Origin: Psammoneis japonica
Lineage: Eukaryota
Direction: 5' to 3'
DNA length: 64,000 nt
Assembly: GCA_008632985.1 (NCBI GenBank)
Contig: QPGO01000065.1
Span: 186,001 to 250,000, forward strand
The notes under the pieces were generated by a model, which saw only the letters and a list, made by a program, of their open reading frames with translations, ran no database searches and had not been told where the DNA came from. Position numbers and translations under genes: made by a program. This document shows positions 9,001 to 64,000 of the stretch, in pieces (the stretch's first letter is position 1; the number at the start of each line of letters is the position of its first letter).

Positions 9001-9562
9001 CGAAGCTGCACCGGGGTCGTTTCAAAATTAAATGCCATGGCTACTGCGACGTACGGTACTAAGATCTATAAGCACTATTCTCTCTACTAGTAGAGCATAC
9101 TGTTCGCGCCTTTTCTCGTTCGAGCATCGCCTTCTACTTTCGGACACGTGATAAAACTTGACAAGCAATTGATGTCACATTTCCAATGACGTGTATGCTG
9201 TATATATTTTTTTTGAAGAGTAAAAGGCTCGGAAACGGCATCCACCACGGCAGCCTAAGGAGCGAGTGAGTAGAAAGCATGCACAATTCACACATTTTAA
9301 GTGCAAGCCACTGTGAACAGAGAGGATCGAGTGAGGTGCAAGACCAAAATTGTCCATCAATCAAAATTCGCAAGCTCCATCAGGCTCCTTCCACAAGAGC
9401 AGCACAGCAACACCCAGGACATTCACCCAATTGACAATGATGCCACTGGAGCATGTCGGACGATGAAGTGTCACCCGAACTTGGTCAGGATGTTTTGGTG
9501 TTGCCCAGACTGGATGCAACTTTGGAGATGCACCTGGCCCTTGCAACTGGGATGGTGATTCA

Positions 9563-10148
9563 TTGCAAGCTTGCCAACAGATTGTGCAGCATGCTTTCCA
9601 CACCCCGAATGTTGTGGAAATCATGTGACCATTCCTGCCAATGCTCAATTTTCCTCCGGCTCCAGTGGCTTTGGTGGTTGCCTCATTTGGCCAAGCTCTC
9701 CCAGATTCTCTCAACCCGGGAGTGCTGCGAGATGGCCTGTGGATGTCCCCTGCATTCAAACTCCACATTGACGACAATGTGTGGGCCCACATTGCACGGT
9801 TCTTGGAGCACACTGTTTTTGCCAGTGCATTTGCCCTCTGCATTCTGCAAGGGTTTGCAAGCTTGCCAACAGATTGTGCAGCATGCTTTCTGCACCCCAA
9901 ACATTGTGGAAATCATGTGACCATTCCTGCCAAAGCTCAATTTTCCTCCGGCTCCAGTGGCTTTGGTGGTTGCCTCATTTGGCCAAGCTCTCCCAGATTC
10001 TCTCAACCCGGGAGTGCTGCAAGATGGCCTGTGGATGTCCCCTGCATTCAAACTCCACATTGACGACAATGTGTGGGCCCACATTGCACGGTTCTTGGAG
10101 CGCACTGTTTTTGCCAGTGCATTTGCCCTCTGCATTCTGCAAGGGTTT
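9563..10148 (+). repeat. Tandem duplication, 292-bp unit, 2 copies
   Basis: ttgcaagcttgccaacagattgtgcagcatgc starts at 9563 and 9855; the copies are near-identical. Confidence 0.9.
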
Positions 10149-10669
10149 CCACGTCCAGAGATTCCCAATGCCTTGAGCCTGGAAAAGCTCAATCTTCACA
10201 TTTCCTTTCTTTGGGAGCTGCTTGGATGCAAATGTGACACAAGAGCACCTGCTGTCAGTGCGGCAGCTCACAAGTTGCATGAGCTTTTGATCGTCCTTTG
10301 AGATTGGCTGGTGTGTCAGCATTGTCTCTTGGGTGACACAATGTCATCTCTGCTGGGCTTGTTGGAGTTCCATGTTTGGCATTGTCCCTGCACCGCTGTT
10401 GGCTCTTCTTGATTTGGGACAATTTTGGGCTGACTTGATTGCCCATCATCACATTGCACAGTGGATTCTTGAGCAGCAAGGCAGGAAGGAACAAATTTTG
10501 GACAACCTTCCTTGCAAGCTCCATCACCATGTTTCTTCTGTTCTCGAACGGGAAAAGGCCCAATTTGTCTGCCATGTGCACCTTGATGGCAAATGAATTG
10601 GCTCACACTCACCTTGCATCTGACAAAAACAAGGCTGCCAAAAGCAACCTTGCATGTGACAAACAAGGC

Positions 10670-11790
10670 TGCCAAAAGCAAGTGCATGTCGCAGGCAGCA
10701 AAGAACAATCAACCTTTCTGTCAATTCCATGTTGGAATCAACAGCGCACATGCAACATTGACCACGGGCAAAGTTTGTGATCAGCATCAACAAAACATGA
10801 CACAACAACTGGGATTCCCATGTTTTTGGCATCTTGGGTGGCATTCCTCCTCAACCTCTCCACAAAAATCAATCCAATCTGTGTTGCACCAAAAACCGAT
10901 TTGTCAATCTTGGGTCTCATTGGATTGCACCCCATCTGTCCAAGATCTTGATGTTTCTTTAAACATCCAAAAACATGATGCAATGCCTCCAAATGACATT
11001 CCCTGGATTCACTTACAATGAAACAAACATGAGACTTCACTGAAAATGTCAATCCTTCCAAGCTCAGTTGCCCGCCAACAAATTCCAGTCAACTGCAAAT
11101 GCCATGTCACTCCATCAGGTCCCAGCTCTGCCATTGCATCCAACTTGGGTTTGCAATCTGAGGCAAAGGGTTCTCAACATGGCTTTGAGTGCTTGGCCAA
11201 TTCCATCTTTGGCTGACAGCCTTCCAACAACTTTGATCACCTTCTTGACAAATGATTTTGAAGAACTTGCCCAAATTGTGCTGCCATCCTGCACCTGGAT
11301 CTTCTCAACGTCAGCACCCAGGCATTGTTCCAGCTCACTTCACTTCCTGGCTTGACCACACACCTCAAATTTGTTTGCTCAACAATCAATTTGCCTTGAT
11401 GAGAGACAATGAGAGTGATGTCATCCACATGGATCAATGACATCTCATGGCTCTCATGACCATCTTCACAAGTTGCCGCTTGGATCCAAACATCTGGGTC
11501 AGCCACAGTTGATTCAAATCCCATGTCACAAATGACAGATGCAAGATGCACGCTCCACAAATGTCCAGCACTCTTCAAAACACACAAAGCGCACACAACA
11601 ATGCAAACTTTGCCCCCAGCTTTGCCACACTCTTTGCCACCTTCAAACCATGTTTTCTCCCATGCACTTCACATTCAAGTGTGCATTCTGCAAATTGACA
11701 CCTGTGGCATCAATGCCGCCAGCAACAAACCAACTCAAGCACCACATCTTGCAACCACACTTGAATGTGCAATGCTGGTTGGTGCTTCTG
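10670..11790 (-). mobile_element. Degenerate Ty1/copia (CoDi-like) retrotransposon pol fragment: reverse transcriptase plus RNase H start
   Basis: ALCVLKSAG, DMGFESTVADPDVW, LIHVDDI (YVDD equivalent, 11420-11431), HLEALHHVFGCLKKH, SCFVDADH. No LTRs were recognised. Confidence 0.85.
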
Positions 11791-11814
11791 CAGCATGCTC
11801 GTCAGCGACAAACC

Positions 11815-12208
11815 TTGACAGATGCAACCATTCCAGCTTGAAGCAGCTCATTTTGTTGCATCAAACTCTTGACATGGCCCTTGTGTCATTTTCTCTCCCA
11901 ATGATCTCTGCGCTCTTCCACTTGTCCTGTGAGCACTCAAAATCATGGCAGGGTTTGCTGAGCTTGATGAAATGTTTTTCAATCCAGGATTTTGGAGTTG
12001 TTGGAACATCCACTTGCAGACTTTGCAAGTGACCCAAAAGCCCCAAAGCTGAGTGCATTTGGATGGTGTTGATTTGGATCACTCAAGCAAAGTTTCAAAA
12101 GTTTTGATTGGAGCTAAATCAAGCAGTGGAGGAGAAGTCGGATCAGCCAATGCACCTTGACAGCACCAATCACAGTCAGCATTGACTGCAATCAAACAAA
12201 CAAAAATG
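11815..12208. repeat. Mutated paralog of 22030-22438
   Basis: Colinear alignment, for example ttgacagatgcaaccattccagcttgaagcagctc versus ttgacagacgcgaccattccagcttgaagcagctc. Confidence 0.85.
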
Positions 12209-15200
12209 TGCGCACATGTGTTGTGCATTGGTTGATGACACAACAGCATGTTGAGTGTTGTCTTGTTGCTGCAGCTTCAAGTTGCAGGTCACAGGCCTCC
12301 ATGACTGACACACCATGGTGCACTGCATCATTTCGCTGTGTCCGCCCATCCTCAGTCCTGGCTGTGGCTGTGGCCAGGACGGGTCAGAAGATGGTCAGAC
12401 ACGTGTGATCTCGAGTCAGAACCAAAGCTGTGTTCTGCCACATGCAGTGGGTCAAAATGACCCATTTGTCACAGAACATGGAATCCACTTGGGTTCTGGT
12501 GTTGAACTTGCTTCTGAGCACTGCCAGCACACAACCCAATGATCACAGCATGTGGAGCCTGCATGTGTTCTGGTGCTGAACTTGCCGTTGGAAACAGCGA
12601 GTGCACAATCTGCATGATCATGGCCGCAACTGCTGCCAGCAGTGTCAACAACAATTGTTGCTTCAATTTGAAGCCTTCGGTGCTGAATTCATGCAAAAAG
12701 AAAAGAACAGAAGGTGGCATTTGTGGCAGCAGTTCAACTCTTCCACCGGGGCTGGCTGGCAATGAACTGACTGTCTCAGCAGAATTTGCAGCAGGTGCTG
12801 CACAAGCTGTGATCAGCAAGTGGGCTGTGATCCAAGAAGGAATCTGGAATCTTGGAGGGGGTGGGGTTTGAAGGCGGAACACAACGTTGATTCAGACTCG
12901 CCAAAAAGGAGACAGGAGACACACCAAACACAAAAAAACCAGAAGACATGACCGAGAGTGGACCTGCAGACAATGGCCAGGGAGAGCAAGCCACGGGGGC
13001 CATGAGGGCATGCAAGAAGAAAAAGAGGACCAAGACAGAGAAAGAACAGTGCAGAAAGACAAATCTTGCAAAGAAAAGGGTGCAGAACAGGGAATGCCAT
13101 GAGTGAAACCGTCGCGGTGCAACTTTCTGGGTGGACAAAAGGACCCAGCCACTTTGAAGTCTGCCCCAAATGATGCAACTCTTTTTGTTTGCTGCGATGC
13201 TCTGAACAACTGGCGCGTGTTGCGCAACAAAGATTGCGCGCGATGATTGGTGACAGACAAGAGAAGTGAAATCACACACGACAACCGGATCGTGGCAAAC
13301 TCCGGACTCGGGCTCGAGAGTGAGTTCCTGGCACTCAAGTGCTTCTTGTTGCCCTGTGTCTTCCCCCGAGGGCAAGAAGAAAAAGTGACATCTGTCTTCT
13401 TCTTGCTGCCCTTGCTCATGTCATGTGCAGCACTGCGCATTTTGGCTGCAAGCTTTCTTCTGAGCTTCCACGCATGGGTCTGTGACATGCTTTTGCTGCT
13501 CAAACTGGAACCAGGATCAATTCCTGTGCTTTTGTCATTGTTTGAAAATGGATCAATCTGTTCACCTTTTTTAGACCCTCTTTCATGGAAGCCGCTGCAT
13601 CACCCGGGCCAACTCTCACATGGCAAGGCACTCTTCCTCTTCATTTGCAGCTCTTCATCCAGTGGGGCACTCTGCAATGACAGGGTTAGAGATGCACGCG
13701 ACAAGACAACAGTCTGCTTGTGTTGTGCGCAGACGCACCTCTGACTTGGCCAGTTTGTCCATTGACTCTTTATTCAGCAGGGCAAAAGTGGCGCCAAAGG
13801 GTCAGAGATGCATGCGATGTGACAACAGACTGCTGACAGTGTGCCCAGACGTGCAGCACCTTTGACTTGGCCAGTTTGTCAATGAACTCTTTGTCAAGCA
13901 GGGCACTCTGCAAACAGGTGTCAGGTGGATTCTGACACTTGTCACAATGCATGTGCTCCCTGCAGAAAAGTCTTGGCGAACGACAACGATTAAAACTTTT
14001 CTTCAAACAGACGGGTCACTTGGCACCATGAGCTGCACCTGCTCCTGAAATGTTCCAAATGTCCTTTTAAATGTCGACACAGCTCATTGCAGTCGGAATC
14101 GTAAACCCCGCATGCATTGCCTTGACTTCAGGAGGGCCACTTAGCCACTTCAACAACATCTTCTGCCACCAGCACAGGTTGGTCAATCATGATCGCAAAA
14201 TCCAGTCCACCACTCACTTCAACAGTCTGCTGAGAATTGGCTCCTTCGTGCCTGAGATTCTGCTCAAAGGTGTTCAGTTTGGCAACCATGCTTCAATTCT
14301 TGCAGAGAATCCAGCAAATGCTGACAGAACTGTTGGAAGAGAACGCGCCTCATTTGGTGTTCTGACAGCATCATTGAGAAGAAACAGCGCTCATCTGTGA
14401 CAGTGTCTTACGTGCCGCAGCGGTGCCTTTGAGCACGCAAGCAACGAGGAGTCTCTCGCTGCCGCAATCCTTGTCAATCAACTTGGCAAAATCCTTGATT
14501 CAATTTTTTTTGTTTGCATGCAATCATGATGCTGGCCAGATGACCCTTGTGAGCAGCAGGTGATTCGAATTCCTGCGATCCAAAGAGCGGTTTTCTTGGA
14601 CCAATCACAAACATTGGGACATTGCAGAAGATTTCAACACATTTCGCCACCCCCTCTGGGATCACAATTGGAGCACAACGCTCCTCAGAAGGCAGCACAA
14701 GCTTGCTCTTTTCTGTCATTCTCCTCCTCATTGCCTGTCATTTGCCATCATGCAACAGCCACAGCTGCCGCCGCTCATTTTCTTGACCTGAAGCTCTTGG
14801 GCAGGCTGAAGTCGTGATGTTTTCTTTCTGTTCATGAGTTGGGAACGCCTCAATCTACGAGCCTGATTTCGCATGCAAGAATGACACCTGGCAGTGCAAG
14901 AACCAAGCAGCGGACACGTGCGAGAATCTTTGTTCCTTGCATTGTGGAGGACAACAGCCAGCTTGCAGGCAGCACCACAGGCTGACGACTGCCGCTCGCG
15001 GTTGAAATCACTGCAGACGATCAACCCGTGCGATGCAGAGTGACGCCTTGACATTTCTGTCATTGCATGGTGGCAATGATGAATGCAAGCAGAAGACTTG
15101 AGTGCCCTTCCAAATGACAATTGACCACTGCCATGTGACAGGAGTTGGTGGTGCCACCATCACCATTCTGCTGGAGAACCGTGGCCCAAATGCATCTGCA

Positions 15201-15654
15201 TGCAAGACAAGTGAACTTTAAGACTGGCTGAAGTCATGTGGTTTTCCAAAGCACAGCAACTGCAAATTCGAGTTCAAGGAGACTTTCCCGACTCACTCTT
15301 CTGCCATCTTTCATTCTTTTGTCTCCCTGCACAATTGATCCATGCTGTGTGGACGTCAAAGTGGGCGCAATGATCCTCTTGAAGTTTGATCATGTCAATC
15401 CTTTGGCGTCATTTGCGATTTGCTCATAGAACGTTTGGGTTTGTTGACTGTTGTCAAAAAGTGCCTGTGAAAGCATGTTCCAGATGATCAACAGCGGCCC
15501 TGCACCTTCTGTGCCTTGTTCATCCGACACGAGGCTGTCCGCCCAGTCAAGCACGTCTTTCTCAGAGTGTCTGACTTTTTAACATCTTGATTGTGTCTTT
15601 TCTTTACGATCACATTGACAGGATGCAAATCAACTTGATTTCGATGATGATGCG

Positions 15655-16500
15655 GTGGGGGTTCTGAAGCCTCGTAGCTCTGATGGGGTTGCCACGACTG
15701 TTTGCACTCACCCTCCTTTCAATGCAAACCAAGCCAAGCTTCTTCGTGACACCAATTCCTCTTCTAATGTGGACAACTTCCAGATCAAGGGAGGAGCAAA
15801 AGAGTTTGAGTTTCGACATGAAAATCTCTTTGTCTGTGTCAAAGACCTCAAGGAGATGCCTTTGTCGAGGAGTTGGTGCATGCGGCACCCGGTCCAAGAC
15901 ATTGGAGACTTCTTGACACTTTGGAAATGTTCTCAGCAGAAGCGTCACACCGCATCAAACAACCTCAATGCAGGGTCAAGTCATTCCATTGTGTCTGTCA
16001 GTTGGAACTTGCTTTGGTGGCAGTCCATCAGGCTGTGTGGCAACTGGCACTGACAATGACTCGGTGGCCTTGGGTGGCGGACAATGCGGGCGAGGAGGTG
16101 GCTTGCATTCAAAGCCGAAAGAGCAGATGAGTCACCACGCAAATTGTTGATCTTGCTGGAAGTGAAAGACAAAAATGACTGACTCAGATGATGAACTTTG
16201 GCAGAAAGAAGCGGCAAGCATCAACTTGTCAATCATGTCTCTCGTGAGATGCCTTCCCTCCATGGGGAGCGAGCATCCGGCCCAAGGTTGTTTGCGAGAC
16301 ATTCTTCGATGCCGTGATTCAAAGTTGACTCACACTTCTCGAATGTGTGTGATTGTCAGCGTCAATCAAGCGTCAACGGACTTTGATGAAACGCAGCATG
16401 CACTTGCTCATGCCACCGATGCCAAGAATGTTCAAATGTCTCGTGAGGCATGTGCACTTGAACAAGAAGCATGCAATCAACAGTCACCTCAAGCTTGAGG
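15655..16500 (+). pseudogene. Degenerate kinesin motor-domain gene
   Basis: TASNNLNAGSSHSI (switch I-like), IVDLAGSER (DLAGSER at 16149-16169), EAASINLS, CRDSKLTH, CVIVSVNQASTDFDETQHALAHA; frameshifted. Confidence 0.85.
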
Positions 16501-16697
16501 CTGCTCCTGGATGTGACAGAATGGCCCTCAAGCGGGATGCTGCCCCAACGGATGAGACGAAACGCCCCAACAGGATTTCCAAAAAGCACACAATCAATGG
16601 TCACCTCAAGCTTGAGGCCACTCATCGACGTGACGGAACGGACCTGAAGTGGGGTGCTGCCCCAACGGATGAGACGAAACGCCCCAACAGGATTGCA
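16482..16697 (+). repeat. Imperfect tandem repeat, period about 120 bp
   Basis: gtcacctcaagcttgagg...tgccccaacggatgagacgaaacgccccaacaggatt occurs twice. Confidence 0.8.
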
Positions 16698-17539
16698 CGA
16701 CTTGCAGAGAGAACCAACCCCCCCCCCTCAAGAAGAAGCCACCACAAAGAAGGACATGTCAAGGAAACACGTGGCAGCGGTGGCGACAGGCAGATCGGAA
16801 AAGAGACCAAAACAGACAAGGCCTGCCATTGATGGCATCAAGAAACACAAGGCAGAACCACAGGGGAGCTGCTGACGTCACTGAGAGCAACGTGGGCAGC
16901 GTTTTACTCTTGGCTGGACTCAAACGCAAGTCTGCCAGCGAATCATCTGACAAGGACTTCAAGAGAGCTTGGAGGACATGCCTGTGGTTGCCAAAGCAGA
17001 AGCTGAAGGCCTGCAGTTGGAGAACGAGGTGGCTGCACATCAAACGACTCCTCGCATCCCAACGGAGTGTCGCCCAAATGCATTCTCGGCATTGACACAC
17101 ACACCACTCCCGGTTCCAGGGATGGTCGACTCCTGAGCTGAAAAGCCCAAACAAAAAGCTGCAGCAAAGTGCAAGAGTCAAACGAGGGAGCTTCTTCTGG
17201 AGGTGGACTTCCTTGCTGCCATCAGCACGGCTCCCATGCCGGACACACGACGCACTTGACATTTTGCTTTGACGCAGAGCTCCGAGGAGTCGCACTTGCG
17301 TTCACGCAGTTCCTCGGACTGCACCAGCTGCAGGTTTTCAAACATCCCTCTTGAGGTTCTCTTTTCAAGAATGCTTCATGTGAGCACCATCCAAGGAGTG
17401 TGGCTTCTTTTTCTTTTGCATGCTCAGAATTCAATTCACAGGAAAAATCCTTGTCGGACTCGTCGCTGCATTCCGTGCCCAATGCAGTGAAAAAAGCCTC
17501 GTGGGACACGTCTTTGTTCAACACAAAGGTCCAACCATC

Positions 17540-17990
17540 CGGACAAAAAGGACAAGCCCAGTGTTGGGTTGCTTTCCTGCTCGCAGATTTCAATTCTAAA
17601 TGACTGCCCCACAGGAAGACCCGGTGCAGGCAGAGCCTTTTCCTGCTCGTCAAATTCGCAGCAAAGCTAAATAAAGACAGACAGTCACAGCGAGTCGCGA
17701 CATCATCGCAGGCATGAAACCCCGTTGAGGCACCTCGCCATGTTGTTCTCAATGCATGGGATCGGAATGACACATCATCGTCAATCAACTCTCGTCGACA
17801 GAGTGCGCACCTTAGAAAACGAGCTTCGAATCACTGCTGTCCGAGCTGCTCATGTTGCTCAAACATGTGAGACACCATCGACAGTTCTCTGAACAAAGAT
17901 GAAAGCTCTGAAGCTGCTGCTCGACTTGAGTCGTACCGTAAAGCTTCGGCCGTCGTGAATTCGAAGGTTCATCATCTTGCTCTTCTTTCA
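17540..17990. repeat. Partly mutated paralog of about 20530-20790
   Basis: Shared ccacaggaagaccc, cccgttgagg and aagcttcggccgtcgtgaa segments. Confidence 0.75.
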
Positions 17991-19890: not shown

Positions 19891-20773
19891 AAACAGCGAA
19901 TAAATCATGCACTGCTGAAAATGGCGAAGGAAAAGGGAAAGGGTGAAGGGGTAAATTATAGTCTAGAATGATAATACTCTATAGAATAGAGGTATCAAGC
20001 TATCAAAGAGTTGCTCGATGACAATATCTTAGTGATAACACACTGATACGATACCTTACTCTACCGGTAGAGCACAAGGTACAATAAATGATGCGACCAA
20101 GTGAATACTAGTATCTTCAGTCTAGAGCAGGAGTTATGCAAAAAAGATGGTTCAGTTTCCAAAGTAGACAAGGAGCTTTCCATTGAAAGCAAAAGTTGTA
20201 GTAGAAAAACGTGTTGACGTGCTCCTGCCGAGCCACACTTTGCAGCTGCGGTGCGTTTACCCGATGACCTGAATCGTTCGTATCATCATCGTCGTGATGC
20301 TCTTTGCACAAGACCCTGACGAAAGCGCTGTAGCGCACTGCTCCTATCGATATTACTGCGGTCGCCCGTTTTGTTATTCCTGGATCGTTGGGTCATACCA
20401 TCGTTTGTTATTCCGGCCGGAGATCGTTTTTCCATTCCGATAAAAAGATGTAAAACAAATGGGGTCGAATCAACATTAACATCCTGCCGAAATGATTCTT
20501 GGCTTCCACTGAATAATGATGATTTCCATTCGGAGCAAAAAGGATGAGCCCAGTGCTGGGTCGTTTTCCGGACCGCTGGTTTCAATCCTAAACAACCATC
20601 CCACAGGAAGACCCGTAGAGTCTTTTCCTCTTCGTCAAAGCGGCAGCAAATCAGAAAAGAATAGATAGTCAGAGTTAGTCGCGATATAATCGTAGGTATG
20701 CAACCCGTTGAGGTATCTCGCCGTGCTGCTGCTCGATTTGAGCCGTGAAAGCTTCGGCCGTCGTGAACTCGAC

Positions 20774-20884: not shown

Positions 20885-22400
20885 GAAGCCAATTTTGACA
20901 TATCGCAAGAGAATCGAGTAATGTCACTTGGCCGCATCCACCGACCTTTATTGCGTTGGGCGGCTTGGACCAAGAATGGCAAGCCCCTGTCTCTTTTCAA
21001 TACTGTATCTGGTTTCAACACGCAAAACTTCCATCCGGCACGGCCCTGTCGGTCTCGTCTTTTTCCAAATATCTGAGAAAGTTGGTACAAGAGAGAAAAG
21101 GTGCTCGCGGGACAGAGAAGATCCATACCCAGATGATAGCCAAACGCCATACCTTTTGCAGACAGACATACTTGCGGGTTTCGTGAGGTAGTCACAGCAT
21201 TTTTAGCATGTTTCGCATGTTTGACAATCGGGTACAAGGCAGAGGATGCATTGCAGCAACGCTGATTGTACAAGTCTCGCAATTGTTTCTTGCCACTTGG
21301 CAAGACACTCTCCAGCAATACCACCTCCTCTTGACTGACCCGCCATTTTTCGTCGTAGTCGCTCGTAGGCTTCCCTTGTGCACACTTCTTTGGCTCGTAC
21401 ATTCTCCAAGACATCCCCATCGTGCAAACGAATCTAGTAAAAAACACAACGAGAGTAAGAAAGAATGTAACGAGAGTGAGATTCGGAATCCCAACATTCA
21501 TCGCTAAGCCTTACCGATTGGCCCACCACCTCCCTCTCTTCTTCCTACTCCCGATCCCAAGGCGAGACCAACTCTCGGGCCTACAGGACCACCTCCGCCA
21601 AACCCGACAGTCTTGCCTACTCCAGATCCAACTCCGTAGTCGCCTCTTCCTACTCCCGATCCGACAGCGCGGCAAACTCCGGAGCAACAAGACTACATAC
21701 ACCAAACCCGACACCTTTGCCTACTCCAATCTGACTGGCCCACCTCTCCTCCCTCACTTCTTCCTACTCCCAATCCCACGGCGAGACCCTTTCTCACAAC
21801 TTACAGCAGGCAACAAACATCAATAAAACAAAACGGGAAATGTCCTTCTCGGTTGGCATGGGCTGTAGATGATGGTGTGTAGCTATCTGGAAATACAGGT
21901 ACATTCTCCACTGTCTCTCCTGTACCCTCTTGAATTTCACGAGTCGTCGGGAGACTTGAATAAGTGGGTGGGGGCGTGACGGACTGCACAGCGAGAGTTC
22001 GAGAGGACGATGCTGAACGTGTATCATGATTGACAGACGCGACCATTCCAGCTTGAAGCAGCTCTTTTTGTTGCATCGAACTCTCGATATAATCCTTGCA
22101 TATTTTTCTTTCCCAACGCTCTGCCACTTGTCCTACGAGTACTTGAAATCACGGTGAGGTTTGCTGAGCTTGATGAAATCACGGATTTTTCGATCCACGA
22201 TTTCGGAGTTGTTGGAACATCCAGTTACGGACTTTGGAAGTGACCCGAAAGTCCCAAAACTGAACAAACATGGATAAGCCACTGATACTGTATCGATTTT
22301 GGATCATTCAAATGAAGCTTCAAAAGCTTTGATTGGAGCTAATCGAGTAGCTGAGCGAGAATTCGATGAAAAATGAGCCGACACTTTGACAGCACCAATT
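20860..22400 (-). pseudogene. Disrupted hypothetical gene(s), family shared with the copy in block 1
   Basis: Protein-like minus-strand fragments with stops; three internal cttcctactccc repeats at about 21536-21790; homology to 11815-12208. Confidence 0.35.
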
Positions 22401-22856
22401 ATAGTCAGTATCGATCGTAAATCAAACAAGCGAAAATGCTAATATAAAGATACTTTAACGTATCGTGTGTCATCTCGTTATATTGTAGGTCGTATGGGCC
22501 TCCGCAACTCTAAACGCCATGGCGCAGCGCAGCGTTGTCCCTTTTAGGGCTACCGTACCGTACCGTATTCCTCGAGATATACTCTCCATCGTTTATCTTT
22601 GAATTTTTTTTGACACCTGTGGACAAACGGGACACTGCGTACTCCAGGGCGTAGATAGTACTGAGTGCTCCGTGGACAAGCGTAGCAAGGCGTAGTAGCT
22701 GTATCAAGTGCTTCACGAACGATGGGGAGTGAAAATCTCTCGCGAAAATTTGCGCGAAACAGGTTCTCAGCGTCTGTCAGTGACACCACCACCCATCATT
22801 TGCTCCCCCGCTCGTCTCCCATCTCGCGTCGCTCGCCCATCGCAAAACCATCAACC

Positions 22857-24088: not shown

Positions 24089-24299
24089 AATACTCCTAGC
24101 TGGTGACTCAGTAACAACACTACTCGAAGCAGCAGACGAATAATTATTGTAAATCTGACATTAGGATTATGTCACTAGACTTGTACTCTAGGTTTCGCGC
24201 AAGTGAGACGACTTTCCAATACAGAAATCTGCAAAGAGAATGTGGAGAACACCTTCAACGTCGACAGCACCTCTCCTCATTTTTGATTTTCCATAACAT

Positions 24300-25516
24300 C
24301 AAAGCTGTCGTTGATGTTGAATCGTCCAAAAGGCTCACAAAAAAGTTGAAGCTGTCTCAAGCTGGCCCTTGAATTCTGTCTGCAAGGCCTGTTGCAAGTG
24401 AGGCAGCAGACAGGAGAAAAGTGCAGGCATTTTCAAAGAGTGTCTGTGGCCACTTGGCTTCTCTGATCGCTTTTTGGCTTCCACTGCCATTTTGAAACAA
24501 AAGGAGTTGTGGGGAGAAAAGGGACAACAGTTGGTTTTTTTAGACAAAATCCCAGCTTGCTCCACAATTGCATGGCAATGGCACAAACAGGAGCCAGTCT
24601 CCTTGGTGCTTTCCACTCAGTGAGCAGCTGACACACTGCTTTGTTGTGGGTGTCATTGGAGCCATTCTTCTGAGGGGCACTGAACCAACAGGCTGACTTT
24701 TGGTGGCAAGCTTGAGGTCCTTTTAAAGCTCTTTTTCATGCACATGTTGCATGACCAAAGCGCACCTGGCAGGAGCTGAGACCAGAGAAGAAAAACTGCT
24801 TCTGTGTCTGTGGGGCCAGTGTGCCCCATTGAAGACAAGCTGCAAGCTGCACAAGACACACAATTGTGGACATTTGATGTTTCATGGTCATGCTGCTTGG
24901 GACTCCCTGTTTCTCTGGCAGGTCTTTTTGGTGGTGCAGAAGTCACATTTTTGCCTCAGCATGAATCCAGTGTTTTGAGCCTTAAAAGTGCAGAGCAAAA
25001 CAAGCAAAAGTTCAACAAGTTTGACAGCCAGTGGCTCTCACACAGAGATGAGGATCAAGCTCACAGCACCAGCATGCAACATTGTGGTGGGACATTGTGG
25101 GAGGACAAGTGTGGGCTGCCTCAGCAATGGGGACAACAAGCACAGCTGGACAAAGGCAGCCCCCCCCCCCCACCCACCCACACATGTTCCTTGGGGATGC
25201 AAGATCACCAAAAATCTTGAGAAGGAGCCCTCATGAGCTCAACTTGTTCAAGCCACTGTTCAAAAAACTCTGGAGCAACAAAGTTGTGCAGAAGCAGTGC
25301 CAGGGCCCCAGAAAAGTGTCTGGAATTTCATTGTTTTTTGACATCCCTGGTGCTGATTCTGTGATGAATTTCCACTCAGTGACATTCTAGACTTTTTTGG
25401 CATTTCTGCTGAGGCCCTGGCACTGCTTCCATGCAAGTTTGTCATTCCAGAGTTCTTTGTCAGCTGGCAAACTTGCTTCATTGGCACTTGGCAACAAACA
25501 AGCCAACTCTGTTTCT

Positions 25517-25558
<42 letters not shown>

Positions 25559-26630
25559 CCTCCCTCTCCCTCTCATCTGTGGAGTTGTCTTCAACAAACA
25601 ACCCAGCCAACATTGTCTTGAGCATCTTGCACCCAGGCTTGCTTGGAGAACAATCTCCAAAGCCTGCTTTGAGTCCAGCTTCTCTTTTTGAGCTGGTGGC
25701 TGCACCAAGCCTTGAATTTTGCTGGCCAAAAAGATGTGCTGCTGCTGGGTTGATTGGTTTGGTGTGTGCAAGCCCTGGCTGCGCCCGTTGTTCAAAGCTG
25801 GCTGCAAGAGCACTCTGTGAGCAGCAGCATGCCCACACAAAAAGGTGCGGGCAACAAAGCTTCAGAGATTGCAACAGCATCTCAAGCACTGCCAGCTGCA
25901 ATTTTTGTGCTGTCACCCACCTCTCCTTGCTTGTGTCCTCTCCACATTGTGTGAGCTGATGCTGCTGCCTGGCAGTTTGCTGGGGCTGTGCTCACCACTG
26001 AAGCCTCTTCTGACTTTGTTGTTGACACATGAAAGTGCACAACAAGGGCAGCAACATTTCAAGAGCTTGTTGTGGCAAATTGCTGGTGGGTTCAGAGAGA
26101 ATGTCACACCACGACTTGCTGCCACAAAGCCATTGTTGCTCAAGAATGTGCGCCATCATTGCCCCTGCTGGGTTGAAAAATGAGCAAGTTTTCAGCCACG
26201 TGGGGGTGCTGCCAGTTTGAGAACAAAAACACATGGCACTGCTCTTGTTTTCCTGTGGGCAGCAGCCTCTGGCAAAAGTTGCTTGGGCCGGCACCACGCC
26301 GACATTTTTGACACCAGGGATGCTCACCTCTCTCAAGGGATGTGGGTGGCCAGACCAAGCTCTTGCTTCAAACTGATCTGATGTGCCTGAACCCACAGCA
26401 TGCAGCCCAATGCAGTGTTTGCACAAGTGCAAACACAGCACAAGCAAGTTTTGCAAAGCTTGTTTTTCTCTTCTTGGAGGTCTGAGCTTCTTTTTCAAGC
26501 AAGTCCGCCGCGCGCGGGACCGACGGTCGCCGCCTGGCTGTCGCCTTCAGTGCAGAGTGCGGCCTCATCGCTGTGGCTGTGCGCTGTGCTGTGTGCTGTC
26601 GGCTGTCGCGGTGTCCGCCATGACGCTCTT
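24300..26630. other. TpA/CpG-depleted hypermutated block 2
   Basis: Only a handful of TA, mostly TTA/TAA; CpG nearly absent until about 26290. Confidence 0.9.
25519..25574 (+). repeat. (CT)n microsatellite
   Basis: Directly visible ctctctct run. Confidence 0.95.
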
Positions 26631-26850
26631 CCTTATCATCTTCAATGTACTAAGCGGCATCTGCTGTTCACTGATCTACTGTTAAAGGGGGGTACAGAGC
26701 TAAGCTGTTGTTGCGCTGCTAGTAATTCGCTTCTTGCCAATGAGACTCTCCTTTGTGCCAACATTGACTGCAGCAACTGGTTCCACAAGGCTGATATCGA
26801 GTACTACGACGAGACACCGCATTGGTAGAATTATTCATGCTCACACCATC

Positions 26851-27949: not shown

Positions 27950-30900
27950 AAGCTTGCACAGCAATTGGCAATGATTTTAGGTGCCAAGTTCCAAAGAATG
28001 TTCCACATGCAAAACCATGGTGCCAATTCTGTGAAGGTGCACAAAAATGACAGTGATTGACTAATTTAGCAACGGTCATGATTCAAGCAAAATCTTGTCA
28101 AAAACAACTTGTCGTCTGGCATGATGTTGTTGTTCACCAAGTGCCAAGGGTGCGTGGCTCACCCTTCCCACAGCCCCAATTGTTTGCTCTCGTTTGGTGT
28201 TCTACAACTCATTTTGCTGGAGCACAAAGTGTTGTCTCTCATTGCTTCAATGCTTTTGCATTGTTGAAATGTGCAGTGCAGGTGTTGCCAGTTGAGTCTG
28301 GAGGTCGGGGCAAATCAAGCACATGTCTCTTGCCTGGAGTCCATGTCACTCCTGTGTCTTTGACTGTGGGAAGTTGCCTGTTTGCTTGACCCATCAGGCT
28401 GCAGCTGTTGAAAAGCAGACAGCATTGTTTGTCTGTGAAGCAGCAAAAGCTTGTCAAGCAGATCCTGCTGTTGGTGGAATGCAGGGTTTGGGGTTTCTTC
28501 TGTTGCACAAGTGATGTGGTGCAGCAAGTCATCACTTGCAGGGAGCACTGATCAAGCATGCGACTGACTTGCAATTTTCTTGTTGTGTCTCTGCAGCCCC
28601 CACCCTTGCATTTTTTAGTGACATTTTTCACTTTGAAGATGCACAAAAGCTTGAGGGCCATCTTTTGATGGTGCTCTTGAGGCAACATTGCACCATCTGA
28701 GCAACCGTCATTTCAACTGCATTTTTTGACTTGTTGAAACTTTTCCCAACAGACGCAGAAAGTCTGAAAGTGCAGTGCAGCAATCTTTGCTTGCGTGCAA
28801 CTCATTTTGTGCAAATGTCAATGGAGGACTGTGATGGCAGCTGCAGTGCTTGCCATGTGATGCCATTGCTGTTTTGATGCAGCTGGCTGTGGTTTTGCAC
28901 AAGATGAGGCATTTGCTGTGATGCACACCAGTGCTTGACATTTGTTGACATGTGCTGGACTGGACAGAGGTGCTGATTGCCTGCACACTCTTTTGTGAAT
29001 TTTTTGTGTTTGCTTGTTGTTGGTTGGGGAGTGCCATGCAACAAGTGTTCCACTGAAATGGTGGAGCAACAGAAGAATGTCAATGACAAAGCCATTGGTG
29101 GTTTGTGCTTCCAAAAGGTGAGTTTTACATGCCTGAGAAACCTTTCTGTGAAGAACAAGAGATTCAGCACTGACGTGCAAGTCAAAGTGCTGGCTCTGAA
29201 GCATGTCTGCTTTTGCCTCTGGCTTTCATGTGTTCTGGGGAGTCAATGGGTTTCACTCCAGCAAGCTGCTTCTCTTCTTGATTTGCCTGGCCCCGCCTTT
29301 TTCCTCAGCCCATCTGGGGGTGAAAACAAAGCCAGTCACTTTTCTTGGAGCCTTTCCAGGCCTCAACACCATGACTGAAGCCCCAACAAAGTCTTGCAAA
29401 TGAGCACCAGCCCTTGCCAATGGGTCTTTGTTTCAGGTCACAAATGACAAAAAATGAAAACTGTGCTTGTGGCAGCAGCATTCGAACAAGCACCAGTCTT
29501 CTCCTGCAAGCAGAGCTTTTGATCAAAGTGGTGCTGCTGAACAAGGTGGGCCATGGGCATGACGGCCAATTCCTGAGTTCAGTGCAATGGGACATCATGG
29601 GCCAAGTCCTTTGTGCAGGTGAGAAAAATGAGGGGAAACAAGTTGCAGCAAAAAGACCACCATTGCTTGATCACACTGGGGTGCCACACTTAAACCACCA
29701 CAAAACTGCTGATCATCTTTTGCAAGCTGAGAATGGACACCCTGAGGCAGAGCCAATTGGACCTGCTCCAGCCGCTGTCAGAAACATCGTTGATTCCCAA
29801 AATGACAGTGCTGTGAAAATGGTGGTTGGCCAATCCCATGGATTTTGGCAGCTTGTTCACATCATGAGGGCACCTCTGGGTGTTGAGAACCCTTCAAAAC
29901 AGAACGCAAAACTTTTGCAAGTTCTGCTGGCAAGATGGTGGCATCAAAGCCAGAGGTCATCACAAATGGCACAACCTTGGAGAGAAACACCACCACCACA
30001 GCCATGCTGCAATTTGGGAGAGGCAGACTGCAACACCACAGCCTCAGTTGCCCCCACAAGGGGCAGAATGATCTTTGAGAGTGGTTTTGTGGCACTTTTT
30101 GGAGAACAGGCAAAAGTGGCTGTGAAAGGAACATGCACACAGCTGTCTCCAGACTGTGATGTCAAGGACTGCCTTTGCTTCTCAGGCTTGCTTCTTTGCA
30201 AGCTGGTCAGGGCTTTTGCTTTTTCTTTCTCAGGCACGACATTGTTGTCAATTTTGGAAGCTTTTTCATCCACATGTTCTTGTCTCCTGCATTGGCAGTT
30301 TCAGGAACATCAACAGTTTCCTCATTGGCAGCAATGCCAACATCCGCGTTGGCCACAAAAACCAAGATTGCTTTGAAGGCACACACAAAGGTCACATCTT
30401 CTTTTGAATTCACAGCTGCATTTGACTCAACCATGCATTGTGCAAACCTGCTTGGCATTCTTGCTGATGCGTTGAGGGTTTGTCATCATCCTTGTCCTTG
30501 TGCATTGCCACAGAGCCCTGCCCATCTTCAGCAAGGCAAGCTGCAGCCAGCACTGCAACCATGCAGGAACAGACATTGAGGTGANCCAGGTGCATTGCTT
30601 TCAAGGTCACATCTTCTTTTGAAGTCACAGCTGCATTTGACTCAACCCCATGCATTGTACAAACCTGCTTGGCATTCTTGCTGCTGTGTTGAGGGTTTGT
30701 CGTCATCCTTGTCCTTGTGCATTGCCACAGAGCCCTGCCCATCTTCAGCAAGGAAAGCTGCAGCCAGCACTGCAACCATGCATGAACAGACATTGAGGTG
30801 ATCAACAGCTTCTGCAAGCAACCCTTGTTTCACCAAGGTGCCCAATGTGGATGCAACTGTGGCACAAATGTCATCAACTGCTTTGCTTGAGACCTCGTTT

Positions 30901-32845
30901 GAATTTTTGACTTTCAACAAGTCAAAGGAAGTCAAAGAGAGCCAACATGTCAGTCTTGTTCTCAGTGAAGAGGGTCAGGGATGTCACACCCACATGCTTG
31001 CAAAATGGCAACTTGATCAACTCACTCAGATAAAGGGCCCAACAAGGCTTGGTCTTTGCAAAGAGAAAGGCATTGCTGAGGGACACAGAATTTGCTCAGC
31101 CAACACAACGTGTGCAAATCGTCCTCATGTGCTGCAACCAGCACCAGGAAATCTTTCTTTCAACAGTGCACTGCTTTCATTTTTCAAAAGACAATTGCTT
31201 CTTCTCTGGCAACAAAGAGAAAAAAGGCCAGATTCATTGACACTGGGAAGAACAAGGAGATGAGTGCGCAGTCAGGACCGTGGGGCAGCCTTTTCACATA
31301 TCCAGCACACTCCACCTGCCTCACACCAGTTTTTTCTCACAAAAGCATGTTGTTTCAGAACAGATTGCTCAAAGGCAACTCAGTCACACAGCAAAGTGCT
31401 GCACACACAAAGAAAAATTAAAGTCACAGCATCACACATGTCTTTGCATCCTGTGCACTTGTCTTCTACACAGACAAGCTGTGCTGGCACACTGGGATCC
31501 ACAGGAAGAGGAGGCACATTGGCCACAACAACCCAAGTGGATTCTCTCACCCGCTGAAGGCTCTTCCATTCTTCAGCAGCAATGTGCAGACCACAGAGTC
31601 AGACCACAGCAAGCAACCCAGAGAATTTGAGCCAATCACCATCTGCAAATGAAAGAAAGATGGGGCTGGCAAGAAACAATGCTTTTCATGGTGGAGTCCC
31701 CCACAGCACCACCACAAAGAGTGGCAGCACCAAGAACTCTTGTTCACAAGATTTGCACAGTCAATTTTGCTTGCTGCTGTCTTGCCTTTCTTTCCTCCTT
31801 TTGTGCAGCTGCAGGTCAGGTTGCTGCACTTGGTGACCAAGCAGACATTGTTCTGCACATGTGCTTTCTTTTCTGCCAGATTCAAAGTGGGTCAGTGGGC
31901 TTCCTGCTTTGTGAACAAGGGTTGTCATTGACAGCAATGAACAGCACCGCTGGCTGCAGGTGGGCTGCCCACAGGTCCAAAGTGACAGGTGCTCTTGCAT
32001 TGTTGGCTTGATGATCAACTTGCACCAGCAAACAGCCAGCATTGCACATGTGTCTTTGCTCTTGTGACAGAGCATTGTGCGCGGCATTGTCGGAGAGTGA
32101 ACACAAACCATCTGAAATTGCACTCTTTGGGAATCAGCCAATGTCACAACTTTCAATGCATTTGATCCTCTGGTTTGAGGAGTGAGTGGGATTGCTTCAT
32201 CAGTGCCCATGTTGGAGTTGCTTTTGCAGCTGCCAATTGGCTCACAAGGGCTTGTGATCCGCGCCAAGCTTTTGCACAAATGTGCCCATGAAATCTTCCG
32301 ACAAGTTCAGTGCAGTTGTCAGTCCAATTGTCAGCCACCCCCTGGTTTGAGTGTGTCAACTTTTAAGAGACATTGCGTGCTTTTTCAAAAGAACAGCGGG
32401 ACTCCATGATGTCTTCTGCCCTGGAACGCGCCCTTGAAAGCATCTGAGCCGGAGCAAAACTGGGAATGCTCAACTTGCTCAATCAGTTGTGCCAGCACAT
32501 CCATCCAGTTTGAAGTGGCCTGGTCAGGTTCTGTGCTTGAATTGCCACTGCTGTCATCCATTGCCAGCAAAGGCAAAAGATCTCCATTGATTTGATCTTG
32601 GACCAAAGTCATTTTGACAAATTGTCAGGCAGAAGGAGTGCTGTGCAAACATGGCACCCCAGTTGCCTGGCATGGAAGAAGGAACTTCCCGTGTGGAAAA
32701 GCAACCCTTGCTTCACAATGAGTGTGCACACCTCAAGAATCCGTTGTGCTTCCTGCTCCTCTTCTGTGATGGCATCCCGACCATCACTTCCAACGGCACC
32801 TGCAGAACAGATCGCTTGCGAGAAAAAAGCCAATTTGCGTTTCGC
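27950..32845. other. TpA/CpG-depleted hypermutated block 3
   Basis: TA and CG both very rare over 4.9 kb; abrupt return to normal composition at about 32845. Confidence 0.9.
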
Positions 32846-33224
32846 TAGTACAAAACTTTCGTAGATTTCTACGTCGCTCGCTGGATGGTCCGTCATCAGC
32901 ATCACATTCATCCACCGCGTCAACATTGTCATCTGCCGTAGCAATGCTTCGTGTCTTGAGTTCCATCTGTTTGACAATCGTACTGTGTTTGAACCACATC
33001 TGCGTTTCATCTGGTGTAAAGCTATTGATATAGCTGTTGTTAGCGGAAAAGCAAGAACTACACGAGCATAAGAACGTCACTGCAACTTTCACAACGAAGT
33101 TACAAGCAAAAAGGACATCGTCGACAACACCCTCCTTATGTGGATCCTTTTTATCCTCCAAACGTTCACTCATCGCCTTTACATGGACTAGTACTACGGT
33201 ATTGTCATTGGTATCATTCATCAT
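32385..33224 (-). pseudogene. Hypothetical gene whose 5' part has normal composition and whose 3' part runs into block 3
   Basis: Minus-strand ORFs 32784..33224, 32609..33010 and 32385..32612 overlap successively and cross the boundary. Confidence 0.4.
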
Positions 33225-44452: not shown

Positions 44453-44619
44453 TCAAGGCAGTAGAGTCTTCAATGTATGATGCGATTTATATTTTTATTT
44501 GATTTCGAAGATGTCAGGTAATGAAAATGTCATTTGCAGTCTTCAGGACTATATAAATTTGAATGCATGATGCACTGACACCTCAAAAGGATGGGCCGGT
44601 CCTACAGCATGCCGTACGA

Positions 44620-47100
44620 GAGAAAGCAAAAGCAAACATCCATCGCTTGCCCAAACCGCAACACCCAGAGCATTTGTTTCAAGCAAGCACTCGTGGTTGC
44701 ACCATGCTCTCTCTGTGGCAACTTGTCACCGCAGGAGAGCAGCACAAAACAACCTGCAACTCAATGGACACAGCTTGCCACCCCTGCATCATTGCAGCGG
44801 CCAACCTCATTGAATCCTGCCACAAGCATGTGCCCAGACAAGACTCATCATTGCTTCATTGTTCCACCAGTCAAGGAAAAGAGACTGCCCACAGACTTCC
44901 AGAAACACCACTCTTCATGGTCCTGTGCCAGCGATGCTCTTGCTTGGTGTGGCTGAGAACCATGTTTGTGCAACTTGCCACACATTCCATCACATTGCCG
45001 CACACAGCAACCTCTTGTTGCATGTTTTAAAATGAAAAAGTTCAGGGCCAGGGCCAACAATGAGTTGTTTGTGAGTGCCTTCATCAGCTCTCCCAGCCAA
45101 CAAAGTGCCTCTCTCTGGCAGTTGAGTGTGTGAGAGAGCACATCTCTTGCAGCTTCATAAAAACAAGAGTGGAGAGAGTTGTCAGTTGTGGATTTTGTGG
45201 TGGTAGATCAAGTTTCCCATTCTTCTGGGTCTTGTGAACACAATGATGCTGACACAATGACTGACATGAGCAAGAGGGTGAAATCATCGCAATGCTTTGC
45301 AGGATGAGAAGTGCTGTGTGGCGCAGCTTTTTTTGCCACATGTCCTTTTTGCTGCACTGCTTTGCTCTAAAATTGCCTCTGCTCTTGTGACTGACAATGT
45401 GTTGCCCACAAGCTTGGTTGCAGCAGATGAGGCAGCAAAAAAGTGAGGCAAAGCTGCGCCTCTTTGCTTGTCAAGCATGTTGAGAAACTGCCTTGCTGCT
45501 GACAGAGTGGGTGCTTTGTGCTCAACTGCATGAAGATGCAGCAGCTTCAAGATCATCCACCAAAAGTTGTTGAAAAGCAGGTGCAGAAAGTGTTGGAGAA
45601 CTTGCAAAAAAGACCTGTGTGGGGCTTTGGCAGGCTCAAGTTGGAGCAGAGCTGTGCCACAGATGTTGCAGGGCAGATGACACACTCAAGAAGGCACAAG
45701 AGAAGCTTCAAGGTGTTTTGACAAATTCAAAGTCAAGGTGGCAGAGACTTTTGCAAGCTCTAAAAATTCCAAGGCAAGTGGAAGGCCAAACATTTGTTCA
45801 AACAAAAACAAAACAAAACATTGGCGTCACATGGGCAGCACTCATCTGGCTGTGATTTTGTGCACCATGTTGTGCAAAACCCAGTGCCCATCCATTGCAC
45901 ATTGACCTGTAAAAATTTTGCACCTCTGTGCACACACCCAACACCAAAAAACACTCCACACCATGGTGCGTGAATCTCAGAAGCCTGTCATTTAATGACC
46001 ACAATGACTCAAGATGGGCAATGCTTCACAGTTCTTGCATCAAACACTTTGGTTGTTCACTGGCTTTCTCTTTTCTTCATCAACATGATCATTTGATCCA
46101 AGTGCAATGTGTGAATGCCAGCTGCACTGTGAATGCATTTCACAATTGGTTGTTCAAGAAAACCCGGTTTTTGTGTTGAATGTTTTGCAGGAGCATGCAG
46201 TGGTCTGGGAAAACACAACAAACTGACATGCCCAAAGTGCAGCACCCTTTGCACCAAGTGTCAGCGCCCCTCTCTTGAGCGCACTCTCCACAAGATGGAA
46301 AAGGAAGAATGCAAAGAAAGGGTCTCTGATCATGAAATGGAGCAACCCAGCAGAAAGAAAAACTTTGTTCAACACTTTGAAACCATGCTCAAGAAGCTGC
46401 CAGTTTGATTGGTTTTTCCTTGGTTGGATGGAAAGTCAGTGGGAAGCTGGGTCCATGAACTGTCATCACTCCAAAAGACAATGTTCCTTCTGAAATGGGA
46501 GATGACCATCAAAAGGGTTTTTTTCAAGTTGGTGAAACATCTTCACTCAATTGGGGTCTGTGACAACTTGAGCAAGACTTGGTGATGTGACCCAACTGCT
46601 CCTTTGCAGATCTTGCAAAGTCAGACAAGAACAGCTTTCTGTGTGAGAATCATGTGTTCCATCTCTCTTGTGGCAAAACAAGAAATGAAATTGAGGAAAG
46701 CAGGAGGGGTGAAAAGTTGGACATTGGGCTGTTTGTTCAAAAAGGTGTTTGTTGCTGTCAATGTCACAAGGAGTGCAGGATGCTTGAATGCCAGCAGCAG
46801 CATTTTGCAGGCTCGCCAATTGGCCAACACTTGGATCTCATCTTTTTTCTCTGCTTTCTCGATTCAACCGCTCTCCACTTGGCAGCTTTGCACCAAGACC
46901 AAGCAGGCATCATGGATGAGCTTCTAAAATTCAATCCTGAGGTGGTTGACGTGCTGGGGGAAGAGGGCATCACTCCTCTTTGATTGCTGCCATCGAGTGG
47001 GACAATGTGGAGGGGGCACGAATTCTCTTGCATTGACGAGCGTGGCGCAACGGCGGCCCTTTGCTGCGCAGCGTGTGCAGGCAATGAAGCAATGATTCTT
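44620..47100. other. TpA/CpG-depleted hypermutated block 4, with possible RING-like and ankyrin-like remnants
   Basis: TA is rare; CVECF..LTCPKC at about 46170-46240; TALHLAA and GATALCCAACAGN ankyrin-like segments at about 46865-47090. Confidence 0.85.
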
Positions 47101-63900: not shown

Positions 63901-64000
63901 AGAGAGAGCAGAGAGAAGAAACAACAGAAAGGTCACCTGTGAAAGTGTTGGCTGGAAGTTTGTGATCCCTCATGACAATGCCTTGCAGCATGCACAATGT
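60990..64000. other. TpA/CpG-depleted hypermutated block 5 (runs off the window end)
   Basis: The few TA seen after 61100 lie in TTA/TAA contexts. Confidence 0.9.
62280..63936 (-). pseudogene. Degenerate ELWxxDGT-like repeat (beta-propeller-type) protein gene
   Basis: Repeated LTP.DGKL(H/F)F.A...HG.ELW.H.P units in ORFs 62588..62908, 62937..63446 and 63443..63703; hydrophobic segment at about 63900. Confidence 0.7.

Follow-up and report, generated by a model that had tools for sequence, protein, structure and literature searches.

Several processes are known to introduce clustered, context-specific transitions into repeated or foreign DNA. Fungal repeat-induced point mutation (RIP) changes C to T, classically at CpA, which creates TpA, AT-rich DNA, and many TAA and TAG stop codons. 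Decay of methylated CpG yields TpG or CpA, and deaminases of the ADAR and APOBEC types leave clustered transitions in retroelements. The closest described system is that of the chlorarachniophyte alga Bigelowiella natans (Rhizaria). According to the main text of Mettrop et al. (10.64898/2026.01.13.699255), 230 of 231 de novo mutations in two integrated viral regions of this alga were A→G or T→C, the GC-biased de novo mutations all fell on TpA, the genome contains 124 clusters depleted in TpA and enriched in CpA and TpG, and predicted genes low in TpA are enriched for reverse transcriptase (RT) and DDE domains; an ADAT2-like deaminase has been proposed there as the candidate enzyme. In the literature searched, this preprint is the only account of A:T→G:C hypermutation confined to TpA, with no report from a diatom. 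In particular, a term search of three papers on diatom transposons (PMC2806351, PMC8147415, 10.1101/2025.10.24.684338) gave no mention of RIP, TpA, hypermutation, dinucleotides, or deamination. Here, a 64,000-nt stretch of the genome of the diatom Psammoneis japonica (contig QPGO01000065.1, positions 186,001 to 250,000, assembly GCA_008632985.1; hereafter, the window) is described, in which a Ty1/copia-type RT fragment and the DNA around it have lost nearly all TpA and much of their CpG.

The depletion is concentrated in five blocks, which together occupy 20.4 kb of the 64-kb window (Table 1). Pooled, the blocks hold 47 TpA (2.3 per kb, vs. 41.5 per kb in normal regions) and 16.7 CpG per kb, compared with 58.4 per kb elsewhere in the window; the dinucleotide ratio rho is 0.03 for TA, 0.28 for CG, and 1.75 for both CA and TG, and CpA and TpG lie about 1.5-fold above normal DNA. 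The 1121 nt from 10670 to 11790 contain 2 TpA and 10 CpG, where ~46 TpA would be expected (Poisson P(≤2) = 7e-18). TpA is mildly under-represented across the window generally (rho about 0.6), and at the block edges it falls from about 40 per kb to 0 within one 50-bp bin. As conversions of TpA and of CpG shift base composition in opposite directions, the G+C content of the blocks is unchanged (0.487 vs. 0.475 outside), and they are invisible to G+C scans.

The blocks resemble the B. natans regions, as these are presented in the main text of the preprint, in that A:T→G:C change is confined to TpA, which becomes TpG or CpA on either strand, and is limited to discrete foreign or repeat regions, here of repeat DNA. 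They differ in that the host is a diatom, a member of the Stramenopiles, and that depletion is near saturation, rho being 0.03 here and 0.45 in the B. natans region of a nucleocytoplasmic large DNA virus. Moreover, CpG loss, sparing of TTAA, and knife-edged boundaries are described here, whereas the B. natans main text deals with neither CpG, TTAA, nor flanking context; conversely, B. natans provides real-time evidence of mutation rate, whereas only a footprint is read from the sequence here. We file the window as an instance of TpA-directed hypermutation, a recently described process, in a new eukaryotic lineage. Fungal RIP is likewise linked to repeats, produces context-specific transitions and missense changes in transposons, and marks discrete genomic tracts; however, in the blocks TpA is nearly absent, CpA is 1.5-fold enriched, and G+C is unchanged. 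The TCG-type variant of RIP found in basidiomycetes resembles the CpG part of the pattern only.

The RT fragment on the minus strand is unambiguously of the copia type. Its 143-aa open reading frame (ORF; 11237-11668) has 670 matches with E ≤ 1e-3 and 59 with E ≤ 1e-10 among 1.84 billion cluster representatives (phmmer), the best at 1.5e-23 and 53% identity. Against Pfam RVT_2 (PF07727) it reaches only 15.4 bits (E = 0.015), below the gathering score of 31.6, which would be expected if conserved residues were hypermutated; all nine relatives scanned exceed that score. A custom RT profile was built from 20 of the 150 best relatives, namely those spanning 300 or more residues of the aligned part; it scores the three read-through pieces of the fragment at 147, 33, and 29 bits. 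By tblastn of relatives, the part represented corresponds to residues ~820-1207 of a polyprotein of ~1350 aa. Seven full-length polyproteins (~1330-1865 aa) align with the window only at ~10777-12025, and with these seven together with 152 ORFs from 80 related loci no copia homology was found outside about 10.5-12.1 kb. No integrase, gag, or RNase H end accompanies the RT (Pfam on the 86 ORFs of the 9.3-17.6 kb block, which gave only the weak RVT_2 match and a kinesin fragment; tblastn), and self-BLAST of the window detected no pair of long direct repeats resembling long terminal repeats (LTRs) around it. Since both ends are missing and neither further pol or gag domains nor LTRs were found, the locus is a dead pol fragment of ~1.1 kb and not a whole Ty1/copia element, which would comprise gag, protease, integrase, RNase H, and LTRs. 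It resembles the CoDi elements (copia-like elements of diatoms; Maumus et al. 2009, PMC2806351) in being an RVT_2-type RT in a diatom genome. The frame is interrupted by three in-frame stops, all TGA (11737, 11239, and 11176), at least one of which stands at a conserved Arg site, and by at least three frameshifts (near 11700, 11655, and 11010-11024). The initial annotation had regarded the RT as killed mostly by missense; in view of the three stops, the frameshifts, and the loss of both ends, this statement went too far.

The four altered motifs reported in that annotation (HVDD, ALCVLK, NAHL, and CLK) are present on the minus strand (Table 1), and they belong to a general loss of tyrosine. 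Among the 13 conserved Tyr columns of the fragment (columns in which 60% or more of the long relatives have Tyr), Tyr is retained in none, and eight carry His or Cys: five His (11767 CAT, 11681 CAC, 11449 CAT, 11431 CAT, and 11101 CAT) and three Cys (11584 TGT, 11155 TGC, and 10965 TGT); the other five now encode Ser, Met, Ala, Leu, and Phe. The catalytic Y(V/I)DD box thus keeps its pair of Asp residues and has lost its Tyr. NAHL lies within ~16 codons that are bounded by two compensating frameshifts, in the frame of ORF 11643-11801, one base off the main frame, and the CLK codon is followed by TTA AAG, which holds a rare surviving TpA in the context TTTAAA. These residues are not ancestral. 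Eighty metagenomic loci, retained from 112 confirmed relatives, all have TpA rho of 0.50-0.89, and Tyr is found in 79/79 of them at the ALYGLK site (TAC 41, TAT 38) and in 80/80 at each of the two EYYEM sites and at the YVDD site. The scan pattern by which these loci were collected spanned ORF positions 74-83 and admitted only Y or H at position 74 (the second EYYEM Tyr) and only Y, H, or R at position 80 (the YVDD Tyr); it placed no constraint on the ALYGLK site or on the first EYYEM Tyr. It had been foreseen that intact relatives might already carry His or Cys at these positions, which would have undone the reading of TAY→CAY/TGY; relatives with normal TpA instead have Tyr at the ALYGLK, EYYEM, and YVDD sites, and as outgroups they support the direction TpA→CpA/TpG.

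A parallel process, CpG→TpG/CpA, which is absent from the earlier account, has damaged the RT gene about equally. Of ten conserved Arg columns, four are retained, all as AGR codons, while five now read CAT (His), TGA (stop), TGC (Cys), CAA (Gln), and TGG (Trp), and one reads AGC (Ser). The first five of these altered codons correspond to products of CGN→CAN or CGN→TGN, so that CpG loss has supplied at least one nonsense codon.

The direction of change is further supported by normal-composition copies of two repeats within the window itself, which serve as references for the ancestral state. Of 13 TpA in 22030-22438, five have become CA, five TG, and two something else in the mutated counterpart at 11815-12208, with one unchanged; of 20 CpG, eight have become TG and seven CA, two are unchanged, and three are otherwise altered. 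Over the same alignment, CpA is retained at 22/25 sites and TpG at 22/27. In particular, the codon run AAG TAC TCG TAG of the normal copy reads GAG TGC TCA CAG in the mutated one and thus displays Tyr→Cys, a silent CpG→CpA, and the conversion of a stop to Gln. That TAG stops are removed is confirmed by this TAG→CAG, and a Tyr-free relative, P0280 (see below), whose frame remains open, bears out that no stops arise from TpA loss by itself. In the second pair (17535-17745 vs. 20526-20728), TpA has become CA at 7/10 sites, while CpG is retained at 8/12. It had been proposed that codon changes be tabulated against the closest intact element; they were tabulated against intact relatives, but 22030-22438 is a neighbouring repeat rather than such an element. 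It was also considered as an unmutated copy of the RT and rejected, as the similarity between the two copies stops at the start of the RT and the RT profile gives no match to either of them there.

Within the window both strands have been changed. His and Cys occur at former Tyr sites in a ratio of 5:3, and CpA and TpG are about equally numerous in every block. No strand-coordinated tracts of CA or TG were detected by a runs test (z -0.5 to 1.7) or by skew variance, and the blocks do not differ from normal DNA in this respect, although the power of the runs test is low, the signal being diluted by native CpA and TpG. Tandem duplicates offer a view of where the changes took place. Adjacent double mismatches of CA against TG distinguish the copies at 13/907 columns in the blocks and at 3/1525 outside (p = 4e-4); as each such mismatch represents one ancestral TpA or CpG that was resolved twice, it argues for action in place on genomic DNA. 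The older tandem duplications with these mismatches lie at 16463-16694, 13682-13905, and 62536-62879. Two young tandem duplications within blocks, 9563-10151 (97%) and 30388-30801 (96%), are TA-free in both copies, which suggests that duplication mostly came later than hypermutation. A single N stands at 30585 in block 3, between two near-identical tandem units of ~200 bp, and may mark an assembly join.

Transposons had been named as the substrate, and the copia RT is indeed affected; it is, however, not the sole substrate. The same 8.3-kb mosaic contains pieces of a kinesin motor pseudogene, recognized by VDLAGSER and, past a frameshift, by SINLSI...LRCRDSKLT, in the TA-free part of block 1. 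The Cys of LRCRDSKLT stands at a position where, presumably, kinesins carry Tyr. Thus, host-derived, non-retroelement sequence has been hypermutated too. A contig that is ~80% alike and paralogous to the kinesin-bearing region exists in the genome. In one sequencing run (X2), 197 contig pieces match block 1 at ≥80% likeness, of which 130 are less than 99% alike. The paralogous copies of the block differ by ~20%, mostly through transitions (A>G 157, T>C 151, C>T 166, and G>A 159, with every type of transversion numbering 26-32). Contigs of the same run match the TA-free stretch 12344-14763 with 0-1 differences. The locus is contained in three runs, all from one sample that may be the assembly's own source, with no RNA run among those listed.

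Losses of TpA and of CpG follow different rules. TpA survives in the blocks chiefly in TTAA and in runs of T or A: TTAA accounts for 14/43 surviving TpA, compared with 42/1680 in normal DNA (Fisher p = 1e-11), and a 5' T or 3' A is found at 35/43 vs. 588/1680 (p = 1e-9), the typical context being TTTTAAA (e.g., 10960, 14068, 24724, and 45028). The concentration of survivors in TTAA is possibly a specificity rule of the mutator. CpG, on the contrary, survives least between A/T flanks (TCGT 0.15, TCGA 0.17) and most in CCGC (0.63) and GCGC (0.58). Under spontaneous deamination of 5-methylcytosine, A/T-flanked CpG is expected to be lost most. Moreover, the two domains are not coextensive: at 17.0-17.6 kb (17000-17597) and 26.48-26.63 kb (26484-26634), TpA is 0 while CpG density is normal, and the dinucleotide scan detected no CpG-depleted stretch in the window outside a TpA-free block, so that the domain of CpG loss is nested in that of TpA loss. 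Decay of methylated CpG would account for CpG→TpG/CpA being strongest in A/T flanks and for Arg→Cys, His, Gln, Trp, or stop, but it cannot remove TpA, and CpG loss here is less complete and nested. Transposons of diatoms are CpG-methylated.

The two losses also occur separately among relatives. In 11 of the 150 best relatives, which come from the JGI, ENA, and Logan sources, Tyr makes up at most 0.7% of residues (median 4.6%), and His plus Cys is about doubled. P0280, a cluster-mate of one of these 11 (P0055) and itself outside the 150 best relatives, is an open copia polyprotein of 1377 aa on an ENA contig of 4811 nt. It contains 0 Tyr; the sites at which an intact relative (P0009) has Tyr are taken in it by Cys (23), His (8), and Phe (6), with Arg largely retained. 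P0003 represents the reverse case, with Tyr retained at 10/13 sites but Arg→His at four and Arg→Gln at three. Opposite flank rules, domains that are not coextensive, and relatives with loss of only TpA or only CpG point to two mechanisms, of which the one acting on TpA looks enzyme-like.

What can be read directly from the window, then, is the signature and the direction of change, together with the sharpness of its edges, the fact that it falls on repeated DNA, and that it is partly independent of the loss of CpG. The explanation favored here, to which a probability of about 0.7 is given, is that the mosaic and the four other blocks in the diatom nuclear genome have undergone two kinds of transition, each with its own sequence context, at their present place in the genomic DNA, and that the one directed at TpA is enzymatic. 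The first process would change A:T to G:C at TpA on both strands, close to saturation, giving TpG or CpA; in coding sequence it would replace Tyr (TAY) by Cys (TGY) or His (CAY) and abolish TAA and TAG. Most likely, a deaminase that acts on DNA would convert the adenine of 5'-TA-3' to inosine; the process would be of the same kind as the TpA hypermutation measured in B. natans and would serve to defend the genome against repeats. The second would be decay of CpG to TpG or CpA, for which deamination of 5-methylcytosine in repeats that are silenced is the simplest account, and it would leave Cys, Trp, stop, His, or Gln where CGN had encoded Arg.

Several points weigh against this explanation. 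All of the reasoning draws on one 64-kb window and on database relatives, the enzyme is a candidate, and no de novo event was seen. The knife-edged limits of TpA depletion (within 50 bp) would also fit mutation before insertion, methylation of the blocks is an assumption, and the sequence of the locus rests on one sample, maybe the assembly's own source. The repeat fragments at 20526-20772 and 22030-22438 (~250-400 bp) keep normal TpA and CpG only 3-10 kb from a mutated block, which indicates that repeat homology alone is not the trigger; short length or another chromatin setting may protect such copies. Finally, the excess of Cys over His in P0280 is a coding-strand bias (p = 0.011) that would be compatible with editing at the RNA level or on the non-template strand, and it leaves room for a transcription-coupled or RNA-acting route in some copies.

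This last point leads to the alternative that ADAR-like A-to-I hyperediting of retrotransposon RNA or double-stranded RNA at UA, fixed by reverse transcription, mutated the element before it integrated. ADAR and APOBEC editing shares with the blocks the clustered, deaminase-driven transitions in retroelements, and ADAR favors a 5' U, which at the DNA level would read as TpA→TpG; the Discussion of the B. natans preprint (10.64898/2026.01.13.699255) brings up this preference. Knife-edged TpA boundaries are likewise what such editing would leave, as is a Tyr-free frame of 1377 aa that is still open and has 23 Cys against 8 His. Nevertheless, the signature of these enzymes is single-stranded and precedes integration, with A→G confined to the sense strand in ADAR-type editing, whereas in the window both strands are changed (His 5 vs. 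Cys 3, and CpA close to TpG in all blocks), the mosaic includes a kinesin fragment and repeats without RT, and duplicates that formed in the genome were resolved independently at former TpA sites. In B. natans, moreover, the preprint describes the signature as arising de novo on integrated DNA viruses (10.64898/2026.01.13.699255). RNA hyperediting is thus considered unlikely. Somewhat fainter still is the case for one deaminase of dual specificity, acting on C in CpG and on A in TpA. It would explain why both depletions share the blocks and why CpG depletion was never seen outside a TpA-depleted one, and the same preprint (10.64898/2026.01.13.699255) cites ADAT2 enzymes for which activity on A as well as on C of DNA has been reported. 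However, such an enzyme would have to find its target on opposite sides of the context base (the A follows its T, whereas the C precedes its G) and to act most strongly on CpG but most weakly on TpA in A/T flanks (for TpA, T..A); the non-coextensive domains and the loss of TpA alone in P0280 and of CpG alone in P0003 also speak against it.

Two further alternatives were weighed. Nanopore consensus sequences are known to carry systematic miscalls at methylated motifs, and the runs with the locus come from a single sample, perhaps that of the assembly, so that an artefact of base calling at modified bases in long reads has to be considered. It is very improbable, because the X2 contigs agree over 12344-14763 to within 0-1 differences, each former TpA reads cleanly as CA or TG and not ambiguously, the paralogous copies of the block differ by ~20% and mostly by transitions, and 11 of the 150 relatives, obtained from JGI, ENA, and Logan, are likewise Tyr-free. 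That the family natively avoids TpA and CpG through composition or selection, or has merely undergone ordinary neutral decay, could appeal to the window-wide TpA rho of about 0.6, yet it can be regarded as already refuted: 80/80 related loci have TpA rho of 0.50-0.89 and Tyr at the sites in question, an unmutated paralog within the window retains TpA and CpG, and TpA steps from about 40 per kb to 0 within 50 bp. Selection on coding cannot act on the fragment in any case, since the RT frame is broken.

Table 1. Features of the window (positions as numbered in the 64,000-nt stretch)
Feature	Position	Strand	Remarks
Truncated Ty1/copia-type pol fragment	10777..11850	-	RT domain and linker toward RNase H; phmmer, tblastn, custom profile
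HVDD (YVDD in relatives)	11420..11431	-	CAT GTG GAT GAC; Tyr in 80/80 loci and 18/20 long relatives
ALCVLK (ALYGLK in relatives)	11573..11590	-	Cys codon TGT; Tyr in 79/79 loci
NAHL (NAYL in relatives)	11676..11687	-	His codon CAC; Tyr in 16/20 long relatives
CLK (YLK in relatives)	10957..10965	-	Cys codon TGT, ORF 10738-11088; Tyr in 15/18
Block 1, mosaic of degraded repeats including the RT	9299..17597		19 TpA in 8299 nt; CpA/TpG rho about 1.4-2.1
Block 2, TA-free, CpG-poor	24295..26634		Dinucleotide scan
Block 3, TA-free, CpG-poor	28204..32846		Dinucleotide scan; depletion begins near 28000
Block 4, TA-free, CpG-poor	44616..46925		Dinucleotide scan
Block 5, TA-free, CpG-poor	61194..64000		Dinucleotide scan; continues past the window end
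Normal-composition copy of the repeat adjoining the RT (11815-12208)	22030..22438		Self-comparison; ancestral-state reference
Normal-composition copy of the block-edge repeat (17535-17964)	20526..20772		Self-comparison
Kinesin motor pseudogene pieces	16146..16495	+	Pfam Kinesin E = 1.1e-7, 31.6 bits vs. cutoff 29.3
LRR protein with LRRNT_2 domain	3-1775		Host gene, normal TpA and CpG
Protein kinase	7855-8997		Host gene, normal TpA and CpG
TatD-type DNase	26704-27477		Host gene, normal TpA and CpG
DDX10/DBP4-type DEAD-box helicase	49409-49996		Host gene, normal TpA and CpG

The remainder of the window contains host genes of normal composition, some of them only a few hundred bases from a block edge (Table 1). 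Host ORFs are long and intron-free, as in diatoms. The closest named matches of the helicase ORF are from diatoms, namely Attheya (72%), Fragilaria crotonensis (70%), Thalassiosira species (70%), and Phaeodactylum and Fistulifera (67%), with brown algae next (~64%). The host genes thus mark the window as nuclear DNA of a diatom rather than of Bigelowiella. In normal-composition DNA, a 792-aa ORF on the minus strand (52080-54455) has no Pfam match and includes tandem repeats of ~297 bp (52705-53584) whose units are 77-89% identical. Within the four blocks other than block 1, Pfam searches of 105 ORFs gave nothing credible. As TAA and TAG are gone and only TGA stops are left, long spurious ORFs (up to 333 aa) are open in several frames of the blocks. 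The longest of these, at 29375-30373 on the plus strand, was considered as a real protein and judged spurious (ESM Atlas at most 0.89, low recognition, few shared features, and no Pfam match).

The window adds several constraints: TTAA is spared, the edges are sharp to 50 bp, both strands are changed in place, and the process is independent of CpG decay. A candidate enzyme must reproduce each of these features. It can be proposed, tentatively and at slightly less than even odds, that diatoms possess a dedicated, DNA-acting, context-reading mutator opposite to RIP, which would deaminate adenine, or convert the A:T pair in some other way, at 5'-TA-3' in silenced repeats on both strands, spare TTAA, stop within 50 bp of the repeat boundary, and be independent of 5-methylcytosine decay. 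Since a rhizarian alga acquires this signature de novo, such a mutator would be an old defence shared across the lineages of the stramenopile-alveolate-rhizarian (SAR) group, and it may have been missed so far because G+C is unchanged and long, stop-poor ORFs are called orphan genes. The blocks escape scans for RIP and for G+C, having normal G+C and few TAA or TAG, and gene finders would probably call orphan genes from their spurious ORFs; Tyr-free 'proteins' are already present in public databases, as the 11 among the 150 best relatives illustrate. With the saturated signature in a diatom, TpA-directed hypermutation would not be a one-species curiosity, and comparative genomics could serve in the search for the enzyme.

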